DNA of 41,253 nt from a virus (taxonomy: Duplodnaviria > Heunggongvirae > Uroviricota > Caudoviricetes), in IMG/VR virus record IMGVR_UViG_2563366955_000016; one strand, 5' to 3'. Below, piece after piece: positions 8,255 to 27,213 of this stretch. Made by a program: the position numbers and the translations under genes. Position 1 is the first letter of the stretch, and every line of letters begins with the position of its first letter. The notes below the pieces were generated by a model, which made no database searches, had not been told where the DNA came from, and saw only the letters and a program-made list of their open reading frames with translations.

Positions 8255-8902
8255 TCAGCGACCAATCACCACAACCTGACCACCATCACCTTCATCTGCC
8301 GTGCTGATCTCCTGAGATACCACCCGCGACCCCACACGCATTTCACCGTACAGAACGGGCAGAACATTGCCCTGGGCAACCATGTTATCCAGTGACGAGA
8401 AATACGTGTTCTGTTTGCCGTTATCTGTACTGGCTGCCGTGGGCGTCCTGGCTTTCGGTGCCAGCATCTGCGCCACACCACCCAGGATCATACTGGCCCC
8501 TGCTGCATACATACCCGATACAGCCGCGGCCCCCAGCCAGCCCACAGGGTTCCACCATGCCACCGCAATCAGCGCCGCACCCAGCACCGCCTGAAACACA
8601 CCGCCACTTTTGGCCCCCTCCAGACGCGGAACGATGTGGATCACGGCACCATTTGCCAGCGGCTCATTAAGACGGGCAGACAATTCGGTTTCACCTGCAT
8701 CACGCCCGGCAATCCGTACCTGATACCAGCCGTCACTCAGTTTCTGACGAAACGCCGGGATCTGCATGGCCAGCGCCCGGATGGCTTCGGCCCCCGTTTT
8801 CACACGAAGGTCGATACGGCGACCAAATCGTTGTAAATTCCCGTAAAGGCAGATGCGTGCCATGCCCGGTGACGCCAGAGGGAGTGTGTGCGTCGCTGCC
8901 AT
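8255..8902 (-). CDS. I: tail assembly protein I, 215 aa
   Basis: MAATHTLPLASPGMARICLYG start and C-terminal NGKQNTYFSSLDNMVAQGNVLPVLYGEMRVGSRVVSQEISTADEGDGGQVVVIGR are lambda gpI-like. Confidence 0.85.
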   Translation of the reverse strand: MAATHTLPLASPGMARICLYGNLQRFGRRIDLRVKTGAEAIRALAMQIPAFRQKLSDGWYQVRIAGRDAGETELSARLNEPLANGAVIHIVPRLEGAKSGGVFQAVLGAALIAVAWWNPVGWLGAAAVSGMYAAGASMILGGVAQMLAPKARTPTAASTDNGKQNTYFSSLDNMVAQGNVLPVLYGEMRVGSRVVSQEISTADEGDGGQVVVIGR

Positions 8903-16755: not shown

Positions 16756-16944
16756 CTATGAATGCTGTTTTTTAGACTTATCAGCCCCCCGCGCAACAGG
16801 TGTTCTCTTATCAGAGACAATCCCAGCTGCAGTGGCAATTTCGCGTACCCGTTCGGGTAATTCTTTATCTTCATACTCACCGGCCCGAATAATCTCAACA
16901 CGCATACCGTCCGGTGACCATTTCAGATCTTGTTTCAGGATCAT
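16756..16944 (-). CDS. small hypothetical protein, 62 aa
   Basis: ORF only; fills the gap between the capsid and connector genes. Confidence 0.3.
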   Translation of the reverse strand: MILKQDLKWSPDGMRVEIIRAGEYEDKELPERVREIATAAGIVSDKRTPVARGADKSKKQHS

Positions 16945-23469: not shown

Positions 23470-23955
23470 ATGCCAGAACTCGTTGATCCAACAGACTCAT
23501 TAATTAGTTTTCAATACGCCTTTTCTAATGGTCTGATTAAGCCTTCACCATGCATAGTTCACCCAAATATGAAGGTGCTTTTGGATGATGCAGAGGGTAC
23601 GCCACGGTTTACTTATGCATTCTTTGAAGGAGAAAATGTTAAAGGTGTTGCTATATATGTCCCTGCAGAGTTTGTTGAAGGTAAACCATGCTTTGGCGTT
23701 GGCTATGCAGTAGCCGATGAATATAAAGCGCAAGGCATCGGTACTCAACTTCTCATCGCCAGCATTGAAGAAATGCAATACGGATTTAGAAATTCCTTCA
23801 ATGAATTCTATGTAGAGGCTATTGTCGGGGTTGGTAATCAAGCCTCCAACAAATTAGCTGCAAAAGTTTTATCTGATACTCCTGAGCCAGGGACAGATTC
23901 TTACTCAGGAAAACCTATCAATCAGTACATGAAACTTTTCAAAACCACAAAATAA
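23470..23955 (+). CDS. GNAT-fold acetyltransferase-like protein, 161 aa (moron at the bor-equivalent locus)
   Basis: Only plus-strand gene in the late region; acetyl-CoA motif A-like QGIGTQLL after a beta-strand; AT-rich with own upstream region and downstream hairpin. Confidence 0.6.
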   Translation: MPELVDPTDSLISFQYAFSNGLIKPSPCIVHPNMKVLLDDAEGTPRFTYAFFEGENVKGVAIYVPAEFVEGKPCFGVGYAVADEYKAQGIGTQLLIASIEEMQYGFRNSFNEFYVEAIVGVGNQASNKLAAKVLSDTPEPGTDSYSGKPINQYMKLFKTTK

Positions 23956-24133: not shown

Positions 24134-24616
24134 TTATCTGAGACATTGCTCACGAATGTATAGCTGTGCCCCTTCCAGTTGCTTCTGCATCGTCATCAAC
24201 CGTTCTCTGAGGGTGAAATAATCCCGTTCAGCGGTGTCTGCCAGTCGGGGGCTGGTTGCATTATCCACGCTGGTGGGTCCGGTGGCTTCACGCACGGCTG
24301 CGGAGCAACTGGCATTGACCCGCAGGCGCTTACGACCAGCGGCAACATCAGCGCGCAGAGTTTCATTTTCAGCTTTCGCATTGGCTAATTCTCTCGAGTA
24401 CTTTGCATCGAGCGCAGCAACATCACGCTGACGCTGTTGCATGTCAGCGATGGTGGCAGTCGCCTGCTTCAGCTCACTGACTTTTTTATCACGCTGTTCT
24501 TTGTAGGCGATGGCGTTATCACGGTAATGATTGACCGCCCACGACAGGCAGACGATGGTGCAGATAACCAGAGTATAAATAATCGCTGCGACTCTGCTCA
24601 CTGATCTATCCCCCAA
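24134..24616 (-). CDS. Rz: Rz i-spanin, 160 aa
   Basis: N-terminal TM helix, coiled-coil periplasmic domain; follows the endolysin. Confidence 0.88.
24196..24381 (-). CDS. Rz1: Rz1 o-spanin lipoprotein embedded in Rz (+1 frame)
   Basis: Lipobox LVVSAC and Pro-rich mature region; fully nested in Rz; true start probably the internal MKLCALM. Confidence 0.8.
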
Positions 24617-25131
24617 CAGGCTAATGCGCTTTCCTGGTCACGACGAATAACCTGTCCATAGCAGTTATTTGAACGTATGCGGCAATCGCGCCCACCATCT
24701 TTTATCCACCAGCGAATCGCCTCGCATGCGCCCTTACGATCACCGGCATTCAGCCGCTTATAAAACGTCGACGGGAAACACTTACCGGGGCCAATGTTAT
24801 AGGGACAGAATGACGCTATACCCGCTTTCTGTGGTTCGGTCAGTGGTACTTTAATATTGCGCTCCACCCATGCCAGCGCCTTATCACGTTCAATAGCGTT
24901 AACCTGGTCGCATTTTTCCTTCGACAGCTTCATTCCCGGTATGACGGGCTTACCATCCACCATTGTGGCACCACGACAGATGGTCCATATACCGGAACCA
25001 TCGCGGTATGCCGTAGTGTGGTTACCCTCTTTTTCATCCAGAAACTGGTCAAGTATTTGAGGAGCAGACGCGCCTGCAGCAATCAGCGCCAGAACAGCAG
25101 CTGACAGGCCGTATTTGATTTTTGCGCTCAT
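24598..25131 (-). CDS. R: SAR endolysin (T4-lysozyme-like, phage 21 R type), 177 aa
   Basis: N-terminal signal-anchor-release helix; catalytic E-x8-D-x5-T triad ([16 protein letters not shown]). Confidence 0.9.
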
Positions 25132-25186
25132 GGATATTTATCAGGATGCTACCAATGAAAGATACTGGAAAGCCAACTGCAAAAAG

Positions 25187-25501
25187 CTAACAACCTGTAA
25201 TCGAGTTATCAGAACTGTTAATTTTTATGGTATACCGCGCCTCTGAACAGGGGCGCGTTTCTGGCAACAGCTCGTCCCCTTCACATAACCCGGCAGCAAC
25301 ATCCAGGAAGACCTGTCTGATGCTCCTTCTGGCTGCTGCCTCATAAAACTCCAGCGCGGCACCTTCAACACGGTCCAGCGAGATGTCCAAGCCAAAAATT
25401 TCACCGTCAAAGCGTTTTTTGTCCCGTAACGCTAAAGTTACCGTAACTTTATTCTCAAAATTGCGGATCCCTTTCACAATCAGTTCATAGTTTTGAGTCA
25501 T
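25187..25501 (-). CDS. hypothetical protein inserted between holin and endolysin, 104 aa
   Basis: ORF occupying the S-R junction; no recognised motif. Confidence 0.5.
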   Translation of the reverse strand: MTQNYELIVKGIRNFENKVTVTLALRDKKRFDGEIFGLDISLDRVEGAALEFYEAAARRSIRQVFLDVAAGLCEGDELLPETRPCSEARYTIKINSSDNSITGC

Positions 25502-25505
25502 TGAA

Positions 25506-25721
25506 TTACTCTCCCCGTGCAGCCTTACGCTTGTCTTCTCTGATTTTGAAGTACAGATTTGTCAGATAAGTCAGGAAGCCCAGAACCAGACTCCCCAGTA
25601 CACCAATCGCAGCCCACTGTGACGGACTGACCTGATCAAGCCACTGTAAAAACCAGTAGCCAGCACTGCCTGCGGAGGTGCCGTAGGCAATGCCCGTTGA
25701 AATTTTGTCCATGGATTTCAT
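25506..25721 (-). CDS. S: class II pinholin (S21-like), 71 aa
   Basis: [27 protein letters not shown] with dual-start motif (MKSM / MDKI) and two TM helices, as in phage 21 S. Confidence 0.88.
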
Positions 25722-26013
25722 AGCCTCACCTCCGCAAATAACGGATGGCGTAGTTTTACACTGAGAAATGAAAGGGATTTGAAAAGAAAAAACCGCAAAA
25801 GCGGGCGAAACGATATATACAGAAAGGAAAGCACTCTATCCAACAAACCACCCACAGTTAATCGGAATAAAAGCAGAGTGCTTATGAATGATCGCCTGCC
25901 CGAAGGTTAGTATTTCTGCACAGCAATTTTGCAAAAAAAGGCGATCATTCATAACTTAAACGTCTTTCAGTCACTCCGGGATTTCCCATCATCGCAGACT
26001 GAAAGACTCTAAC

Positions 26014-26088
<75 letters not shown>

Positions 26089-26091
26089 ATA

Positions 26092-26167
<76 letters not shown>

Positions 26168-26169
26168 AC

Positions 26170-26246
26170 TGGACCGCCACCGGGGACTCGAACCTCGCAC
26201 ACTCAACTTAAAGGGTTGACGCTCTTTCCTGATGAGCTAGTGGCGG
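26170..26246 (-). tRNA. tRNA-like gene with non-canonical anticodon loop CCUUUAA (UUU at positions 34-36, C at 33); isotype uncertain
   Basis: Perfect 7-bp acceptor (CCGCCAC/GTGGCGG) with C1:G72, D-arm, perfect anticodon stem TCAAC/GTTGA, T-loop TTCGAGT, encoded CCA; C33 and a T-stem A:C mismatch are atypical. Confidence 0.5.
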
Positions 26247-26247
26247 C

Positions 26248-26323
26248 TGGTGGCCCTTGCTGGATTTGAACCAGCGACCTGGCGATTATGAGTCGCTCGC
26301 TCTCACCACTGAGCTAAAGGGCC
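26248..26323 (-). tRNA. tRNA with CAU anticodon, ileX-like (tRNA-Ile2, lysidine) or elongator Met
   Basis: Hand-folded cloverleaf: GGCCCTT acceptor, anticodon loop CTCATAA, T-loop TTCAAAT, encoded CCA; close to the E. coli ileX sequence as I recall it. Confidence 0.75.
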
Positions 26324-26517: not shown

Positions 26518-27213
26518 TCAATCTACTTTTGCAACACTTTGCTTTGAAAATGCCGCCTTTTGTTTTGAACGTGTTCTCATTACAAACAATAAAGCCTCAC
26601 TATCAAGTCGGTGAAAAATGTGTTTCATTGCAACCCAGTGACGAGTAAATGTTTTGGACCAGTTTTTAGTTGTCACTCCCGCCAGTAATGCCAGCTCCTG
26701 GTATTCATAACCTTCCCCACCAAAAAGTTCTGCTTTTACTGCCTGCGCCGCCAGCCAGATTAATTTTTTCAGGCGTTCCTGCGTTTTCCCTGCAATTTTT
26801 CTGGTACCGGATTGAGTATTAAATTCATTCCACGCCCACTGTGTTATCGCGATCTGATATTCCCAACAAATACTCCCGCTGTAACACCACAACAACCAGG
26901 CTTTATGATGTTCTTCAAGAGACAGAACTGCCCGTCGCCATGATGATGTCGAAAACTCAACCTGACTTACCAGAGCAATTGATGAGCCTTTCGCCAGTGA
27001 TTGTTTTCCCGGTATCGGTGGACTATCCCGCGTTATCATTCTTCCAGTCACTTCATCGCGGTACCGGATTTTTTTACGCCTGTAACGCCCTGTATCAAAC
27101 ATGGCATTCTCCTGCCAGGCTTCAAGCTGACCTTTTGTTGCCCCACTCAAATCAGCGGTAGCGATAATGAGCTGCTCACGCACAAACTGTAAATACTGGT
27201 TATTCATGCGCAC
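26518..27213 (-). CDS. late-gene antiterminator Q-like protein, 231 aa
   Basis: Positional: immediately downstream of rusA and upstream of the tR'-like terminator and lysis genes; no motif confirmed. Confidence 0.55.
   Translation of the reverse strand: MRMNNQYLQFVREQLIIATADLSGATKGQLEAWQENAMFDTGRYRRKKIRYRDEVTGRMITRDSPPIPGKQSLAKGSSIALVSQVEFSTSSWRRAVLSLEEHHKAWLLWCYSGSICWEYQIAITQWAWNEFNTQSGTRKIAGKTQERLKKLIWLAAQAVKAELFGGEGYEYQELALLAGVTTKNWSKTFTRHWVAMKHIFHRLDSEALLFVMRTRSKQKAAFSKQSVAKVD

Follow-up and report, generated by a model that had tools for sequence, protein, structure and literature searches.

What is the gene that lies between the pinholin and endolysin genes of this phage, and what could its product do there? 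The 41,253-nucleotide stretch analyzed here (the window; IMG/VR record IMGVR_UViG_2563366955_000016) lies in an apparently complete lambdoid prophage, in which an initial annotation had noted an extra same-strand gene of 104 codons between a pinholin gene and a SAR endolysin gene. This observation was confirmed by the open reading frame itself and by Pfam matches for the S and R genes on either side of it. The interpretation attached to the observation, that of a motif-less moron candidate inserted at a junction where S is normally followed directly by R, was supported only in part.

The ydfR gene and its lysis cassette

The minus strand of the window carries a lambdoid late region in the order Q, four tRNA genes, S, ydfR, R and Rz/Rz1. 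The Q antiterminator gene (26518-27213, minus strand; PF06323, E=8e-90) precedes tRNA genes for Met-CAT, Lys-TTT, Thr-TGT and Gly-TCC (26014-26323, minus strand); the tRNA genes between Q and S are Asn and Thr in phage 21, and Arg or other sets in related phages. S (25506-25721, minus strand) encodes a 71-aa S21-type class II holin, or pinholin, with the dual start M1/M4 (Pfam Phage_holin_2_1; PF04971, E=1.4e-35). It is 98.6% identical to S of phage 21, where the two starts are annotated as giving the antiholin S71 and the pinholin (holin) S68. The ATG-started ydfR frame (25187-25501, minus strand) comes next, then R (24598-25131, minus strand), which encodes a 177-aa SAR-type lysozyme (PF00959, E=1e-24; phrog_7 endolysin), then the Rz i-spanin gene (24134-24616, minus strand; PF03245, E=2e-49) with the Rz1 o-spanin gene embedded in it (24196-24381, minus strand; PF06085, E=1e-18). 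R is of the rrrQ/933W-R type and differs from the R21 type, which has 165 aa. Its N-terminus is hydrophobic, Gly/Ala-rich and SAR-like over residues 9-27 (KD19 of 1.78 at residue 9), and its translation contains the pattern E35-x8-D44-x5-T50; as known from R21 and P1 Lyz, both features mark a SAR endolysin. Late transcription through the tRNA genes, S, ydfR, R and Rz is driven by Q. Just 3' of Rz, the plus strand holds a 161-aa ORF for a GNAT-family acetyltransferase (23470-23955; PF00583, E=4e-6, which passes the cut-off), a candidate reverse-strand moron at the site that bor occupies in lambda and phage 21.

The initial annotation saw no recognisable motif in the middle gene, a description overturned by an HMM search. 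The product matched PF07041 (DUF1327) over residues 1-96 with 128.9 bits (E=8.3e-38; Pfam gathering score, 25 bits), and it matched phrog_2735 at E=2e-54. It is 98% identical to gp55 of phage mEp460, a 'YdfR family protein', and 64% identical overall to YdfR of E. coli K-12, with ~80% identity over residues 1-72 by hand count on the printed alignment. One genome, that of E. coli EBJ003, has a 100% match to the window. The gene thus belongs to a known, long-catalogued family and stands at the usual site of that family, whose members already carry annotations in K-12, RefSeq phages and thousands of genomes; NCBI names such genes 'YdfR family protein' or 'DUF1327 domain-containing protein'. Searches with the window protein gave no match in NCBIfam or among the PADLOC defence models, and a PDB sequence profile search returned nothing at E<=10. 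Four holin-DUF1327 fusion proteins (P0002, P0005, P0048, P0102) were set aside as artefacts, being singletons that require a frameshift across a 7-nt junction.

The dN/dS of the 76-codon ydfR core was 0.23-0.33 in comparisons with K-12 Qin, BP-4795, Stx1_699 and SCU-204, and that of the flanking genes was 0.05-0.16 for S and 0.04-0.10 for R. The gene is under purifying selection, with a dN/dS of ~0.25, yet it evolves faster than S and R. Because of the Pfam and PHROG matches, these dN/dS values and a GGAG Shine-Dalgarno sequence upstream of the ATG, a chance reading frame could be dismissed, and the ORF is a real coding gene. We have high confidence in its identity as YdfR/DUF1327 and in the description of the cassette. 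One close pair of alleles, from BP-4795 (L002) and Stx1_699 (L007), differs over 76 ydfR codons by 15 non-synonymous and 3 synonymous changes, and in the S genes by 2 and 8, respectively. Positive selection on this pair was considered and dropped, since 15 against 3 is not significantly different from the neutral expectation; the pair suggests relaxed or diversifying selection that is statistically indistinguishable from neutrality.

Cassette boundaries and distribution

The ydfR ATG comes 4 nt (TTCA) after the S stop codon, and the GGAG lies 8-13 nt upstream of the ATG within the last codons of S (25502-25520, minus strand: …CGG GGA GAG TAA, then TTCA). This 4-nt spacing was kept in all 7 of the 7 loci inspected. 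A DUF1327 gene stands 4 nt past S in mEp460, BP-4795, Tritos, Stx1_699 and a prophage of E. coli SCU-204, and in the last four of these, as in K-12 Qin, ydfR follows the same S 3' end and 4 nt. In VT2-Sakai, that S 3' end plus 4 nt precedes R, and in phage 21, S overlaps R directly. The S stop codon is where the window ceases to be homologous to phage 21. Together with the S/R overlap in phage 21, this makes ydfR an extra gene relative to that phage. Aligned with VT2-Sakai, the window has extra DNA running from 4 nt past S to the R ATG. On the strength of these clean indel boundaries, ydfR reads as an optional cassette, which bears out the view of it as an accessory relative to phage 21 and VT2-Sakai.

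The gene also changes the sequence that precedes R. The Shine-Dalgarno sequence at the end of S serves R in VT2-Sakai and ydfR in the window. R in ydfR-containing cassettes is preceded instead by a conserved CCTGATAAATATCC-ATG with no GGAG (window 25132-25150; L002, L005, L007), where CCTGATAAATATCC is the last 16-18 nt of the ydfR-R spacer. That spacer is 55 nt long in the window (25132-25186, minus strand, from alignment with ydfR-containing cassettes); no Shine-Dalgarno sequence was found in it, and its RNA folds no better than shuffled sequences (z=0.49). In a blastn alignment of the window with Stx1_699, homology restarts 16 nt ahead of the R ATG. The R start overlaps the ydfR stop in K-12 and Tritos, compared to the 55 nt between them in the window. 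Since R lacks a Shine-Dalgarno sequence in these cassettes and uses the GGAG at the end of S in VT2-Sakai, the presence of ydfR may alter translation of the endolysin.

A scan of the minus strand from 25100 to 25750 found no promoter-like or terminator-like sites. The composition of ydfR (GC 0.470, GC3 0.495) is ordinary next to that of S (0.505 and 0.556) and R (0.513 and 0.494) and the window GC of 0.508. Given the lack of its own promoter or terminator, the Shine-Dalgarno sequence within S and this ordinary composition, ydfR is an integral part of the late operon that is translationally coupled to S. The initial annotation had expected late expression with the lysis genes, and this expectation stands: as ydfR lacks a promoter and terminator of its own and starts 4 nt past S behind the S-end Shine-Dalgarno sequence, its product would be translated from the Q-dependent transcript at late times, more or less together with the holin.

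The layout S-ydfR-55 nt-R is identical in mEp460 (L001), and the two YdfR products have two amino-acid differences over 104 residues. Between these phages, ydfR and R are near-identical (dS 0.02-0.04), whereas the adjoining S genes are different alleles (dS ~1). This contrast places a recombination breakpoint at the S/ydfR junction and shows, at the level of sequence comparison, that the ydfR-R block recombines independently of S.

Only some of these properties are those of a moron in the sense of Juhala and Hendrix. Like the classical lambdoid morons bor and lom of lambda, ydfR is optional at junctions of conserved late genes, with sharp presence or absence between homologous neighbors (phage 21, VT2-Sakai), and distant members of its family occur at other permissive junctions in tail modules. 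In contrast to these morons, it lacks its own promoter and terminator and a deviant base composition, and it lies on the late strand coupled to S. Moron-like expression from a repressed prophage is also argued against by the RNA-seq data for uninduced K-12 under standard growth, in which ydfR has almost no reads, though that is a different prophage (PMC13232886).

Direct adjacency of S and R, which the initial annotation took as normal for phage-21-type cassettes, was not borne out by wider comparisons. By blastn against 5,426 complete E. coli genomes, ydfR homologues were found at 8,615 places in 4,352 genomes (~80%), with up to 10 copies per genome, and the class II holin at 16,888 places in 5,166 genomes. 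The ydfR places are therefore about half as many as the holin places, a rough ratio because blastn sensitivity is unequal for the two queries. In the phage collection, 101 of the 438 records with this holin type have a YdfR homologue. The phage carriers include H-19B, most Stx1a and Stx2c phages and few Stx2a phages, and mEp460, BP-4795 and H-19B are carriers that form plaques. The slot is also filled in K-12 Qin, where the order is essQ-ydfR-rrrQ-rzpQ. Comparison of S-R junctions across lambdoid phages, which had been proposed as a check, shows an empty junction in phage 21 and VT2-Sakai but a ydfR gene commonly elsewhere. Cassettes with a class II holin do not as a rule have S next to R, contrary to what is commonly assumed.

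In terms of distinct proteins the family is small: a profile search of 1.84 billion representatives returned 79 proteins at E<=1e-3, many of which are fragments. Close relatives are confined to Escherichia and Shigella, besides one Salmonella cluster, and a search for related loci gave 8 at the species level, all from Escherichia or Shigella apart from two MAG contigs. An Escherichia-type ydfR locus on MAG contigs labelled Veillonella parvula and 'Bacillota bacterium' (L024, L026) is almost certainly mis-binned E. coli prophage DNA.

The predicted protein and its relatives

The window protein has a pI of 5.0 and a maximum 19-residue hydropathy of 0.75, and no transmembrane segment, signal peptide or N-terminal hydrophobic segment was found in it. 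These properties suggest a small, acidic, soluble cytoplasmic protein. An AlphaFold2 model built on a 27-sequence alignment has strands at residues 5-14, 18-27 and 33-43 and a helix at residues 50-74, with pLDDT of 80-95, followed by a tail (76-104) with pLDDT below 50. The prediction is thus a core (1-74) in which a long helix follows three beta strands, and an acidic tail (75-104) that is disordered and variable. A Foldseek search of this model against BFVD gave nothing at E<=1e-3. Only Y53, E54 and A57 are invariant in the DUF1327 family, with G47, Y5 and L7 nearly so, and the window protein has all six of these core residues. Codon 37 (25391-25393) encodes Gly in the window (FGLD) and Asp (FDLD) in nearly all relatives; Gly37 was also seen in one K-12-like representative, P0121.

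The tail varies in sequence and length. In the window and mEp460 it ends …YTIKINSSDNSITGC, a second type ends …WITYKGKLPGRITGSLKTPPE, and the K-12 type arose from a deletion that reads into the spacer. YdfR of K-12 (P76160, in Qin) is of the same family, predicted fold and site, with a class II holin gene, ydfR, a gene for a 177-aa lysozyme and an Rz-type gene, but its C-terminal 30 residues are unrelated to those of the window protein, its tail overlaps the R start, and Qin is a defective prophage. The DUF1327 proteins of Stx phages (phrog_1085, 287-296 aa; BP-4795 ORF47, 114 aa; Stx1_699) have the same N-terminal core and occupy the slot after S, but are 54-56% identical to the window protein and have extra C-terminal regions; longer forms of the family fall at 161-176 aa and 287-296 aa. 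In the comparison with Stx1_699, ~980 nt are missing from the window.

Stx1_699 also differs from the window in having an unannotated convergent reverse-strand gene after DUF1327. This ORF lies in the S-R slot (L007 2041-2742, minus strand) and has 233 codons, with a likely real start that gives 209 aa. Its family has 294 members in E. coli and relatives in Salmonella (65% identity) and Yersinia (52%), and it matched nothing in Pfam or PADLOC. The ORF overlaps the end of an annotated 263-aa DUF1327 gene, which reads antisense through it; the annotated gene is probably chimeric.

The most distant family members have 72-76 aa, consist of the core only and share 25-36% identity with the window protein. 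They are encoded on metagenomic contigs (L009-L019) of phi80-like enterobacterial siphophages, where they lie between tail genes M and L (L010, L013) or L and K (L014-L017), or, in L018, upstream of unrelated holins. Since distant homologues are found in tail modules, the DUF1327 family is not tied to lysis. Each 72-76-aa member is followed, within ~20-40 nt, by a convergent reverse-strand gene (e.g. L013 449-1001, L014 4001-4821, L018 529-1070). At least three unrelated families are represented among these partners, with ~100 aa (phrog_25324), 70 aa and 182 aa (phrog_18578); searches of the partners against Pfam returned nothing, and those against PADLOC gave one marginal match for one partner. 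We considered an obligate two-gene system of DUF1327 and partner, an idea weakened by the presence of at least three unrelated partner families and by the 209-220-aa family, whose genes in Salmonella and Yersinia prophages also occur without DUF1327, reverse-oriented at either the Q-holin or the I/J tail-gene junction. In our reading, the DUF1327 core is a portable accessory gene of the late strand, and the permissive junctions at which it sits are also used by reverse-strand morons.

Possible roles of YdfR

The only functional data that our search returned come from one paper on the K-12 protein, which used overexpression, two-hybrid assays and co-purification (Göpel et al. 2026, PMC13232886). 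A two-hybrid screen baited with RNase G yielded residues 1-72 of YdfR three times, and this fragment interacted more strongly with RNase E than with RNase G (PMC13232886). Full-length YdfR was two-hybrid-positive with Rne 1-597 only, Rne 1-598 co-eluted with Strep-YdfR, and DNase-resistant nucleic acid co-purified with the protein (PMC13232886). Overexpressed YdfR had no toxic effect and altered few transcripts, and the authors could not exclude RNA bridging or a contaminant as the source of the YdfR-Rne link (PMC13232886). Apart from this, our literature search found DUF1327 in one comparative-genomics paper only and nothing on ydfR together with a holin. The initial annotation had named a conserved, characterised lysis accessory gene as the outcome that would speak against it, and of the two adjectives the first applies to ydfR and the second does not.

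Transferred from the K-12 orthologue, these findings suggest that the core of the window protein would bind the catalytic, N-terminal half of the host's RNase E and, probably, also RNA. The site of action of such a protein would be the cytoplasm instead of the envelope, and late in infection it would affect the decay or processing of RNA, with the long late transcript, its tRNAs and host mRNAs as possible targets. Lysis also takes place in phages that have these S and R types but no ydfR, from which we infer that its product is no part of the lysis machinery. A possible functional analogue is T4 Srd, which is likewise a small phage protein directed at the catalytic half of RNase E; it is described as binding the N-terminal half of the enzyme and stimulating host mRNA decay (Qi et al. 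2015, as cited in PMC13232886). Srd is expressed early by a virulent phage and clearly affects the transcriptome, whereas few transcripts responded to overexpressed YdfR. We found no relationship in sequence or structure between Srd and YdfR, nor any sequence or fold homology to the other phage RNase E effectors T7 gp0.7 and phiKZ Dip. Counted against a role through RNase E are the strict placement of ydfR beside S in Escherichia phages, a match of the ydfR deletion in an envelope-integrity screen listed in the PMC3879167 supplement, and the G37 allele of the window where nearly all relatives have D. We assign a probability of about 0.4 to the whole statement that the gene is a functional YdfR/DUF1327 member and an optional accessory of the S-R slot that may act via RNase E and RNA, and judge the RNase E/RNA mechanism by itself to have a chance of roughly one in three.

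One alternative is a role in lysis timing, either in trans, on pinholin triggering or SAR-endolysin release, or in cis, by depriving R of its Shine-Dalgarno sequence so that endolysin synthesis would be lowered or delayed relative to holin. In Escherichia phages the gene is always 4 nt past S and ahead of R, and the change upstream of R (CCTGATAAATATCC-ATG in place of the GGAG that VT2-Sakai uses), as well as the overlap of R start and ydfR stop in K-12 and Tritos, fits an effect in cis. The envelope screen, which PMC13232886 cites, could point the same way, as the Keio ydfR deletion scored with CPRG according to the PMC3879167 supplement, but that match is unvalidated in the screen and could, we suggest, reflect transcription of rrrQ from the promoter of the resistance cassette. 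The membrane or periplasm is where known holin regulators and antiholins (S21-71, T4 RI, P1 LydB) act, whereas the YdfR product is soluble and acidic with no transmembrane segment. An antiholin-like link to lysis is not family-wide either, with DUF1327 genes at the M/L and L/K tail junctions far from lysis genes and about half of class II holin loci lacking ydfR. In addition, phage 21 and VT2-Sakai have working cassettes of the same S and R types that lack the gene, and its overexpression brought no growth defect. Overall, we consider a lysis-timing role unlikely.

Alternatively, ydfR could be a mobile accessory gene, or moron in a broad sense, with a target other than RNase E, for example as a defence inhibitor or as the antidote or partner of reverse-strand cargo. 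Its presence/absence polymorphism with clean boundaries and its faster evolution than S and R are in keeping with this, and so is the variable content of the S-R slot, which may be empty, hold a short, medium or long ydfR, or hold a long ydfR with a reverse-strand gene. The 72-76-aa homologues are always followed by a small convergent gene, from three different families, but these partners are not conserved, the 209-aa family occurs without DUF1327, and the pairing may reflect shared permissive sites. No reverse-strand gene adjoins ydfR in the window, PADLOC gave no match for ydfR itself and a marginal one for a single partner, and the close allele pair with its 15:3 excess of non-synonymous changes does not depart significantly from neutrality. 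We therefore give this alternative a low probability. Least probable of all, and very improbable in our view, is that ydfR has no function and persists in the operon as the truncated remnant of a longer ancestral gene (~290 aa). The first ~100 residues of the 161-176-aa and 287-296-aa (phrog_1085) forms do align with the window protein, ~980 nt of Stx1_699 are absent from the window, the tail is predicted to be disordered, and the K-12 tail arose by a deletion. However, purifying selection acts on the core, 104-aa forms are common, with clusters of 594 and 203 members, and the gene is kept in viable phages. Stand-alone 72-76-aa versions also show that the core is an autonomous unit, and residues 1-72 of the K-12 protein suffice for the interaction with RNase E (PMC13232886).

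The reading that we favor remains that of a functional YdfR protein, encoded by an optional gene of the S-R slot, which may act through RNase E and RNA. A more general form of it, in which DUF1327/YdfR proteins are a widespread and hitherto unrecognised class of temperate-phage effectors that are made along with the lysis proteins, dock on the catalytic half of RNase E (and on RNA) and re-program RNA decay in the final minutes of infection, with a ~72-aa portable core placed at permissive junctions of late operons, often next to reverse-strand cargo whose products or transcripts it possibly controls, strikes us as quite improbable at present. The gene is among the commonest of E. coli prophages and sits in the best-studied type of lysis cassette. 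If the binding of RNase E and RNA is physiological, lambdoid phages would hold a late-expressed handle on host RNA decay. This could have a bearing on late expression in Stx phages, as Stx1a and Stx2c phages carry ydfR near the toxin and lysis region.
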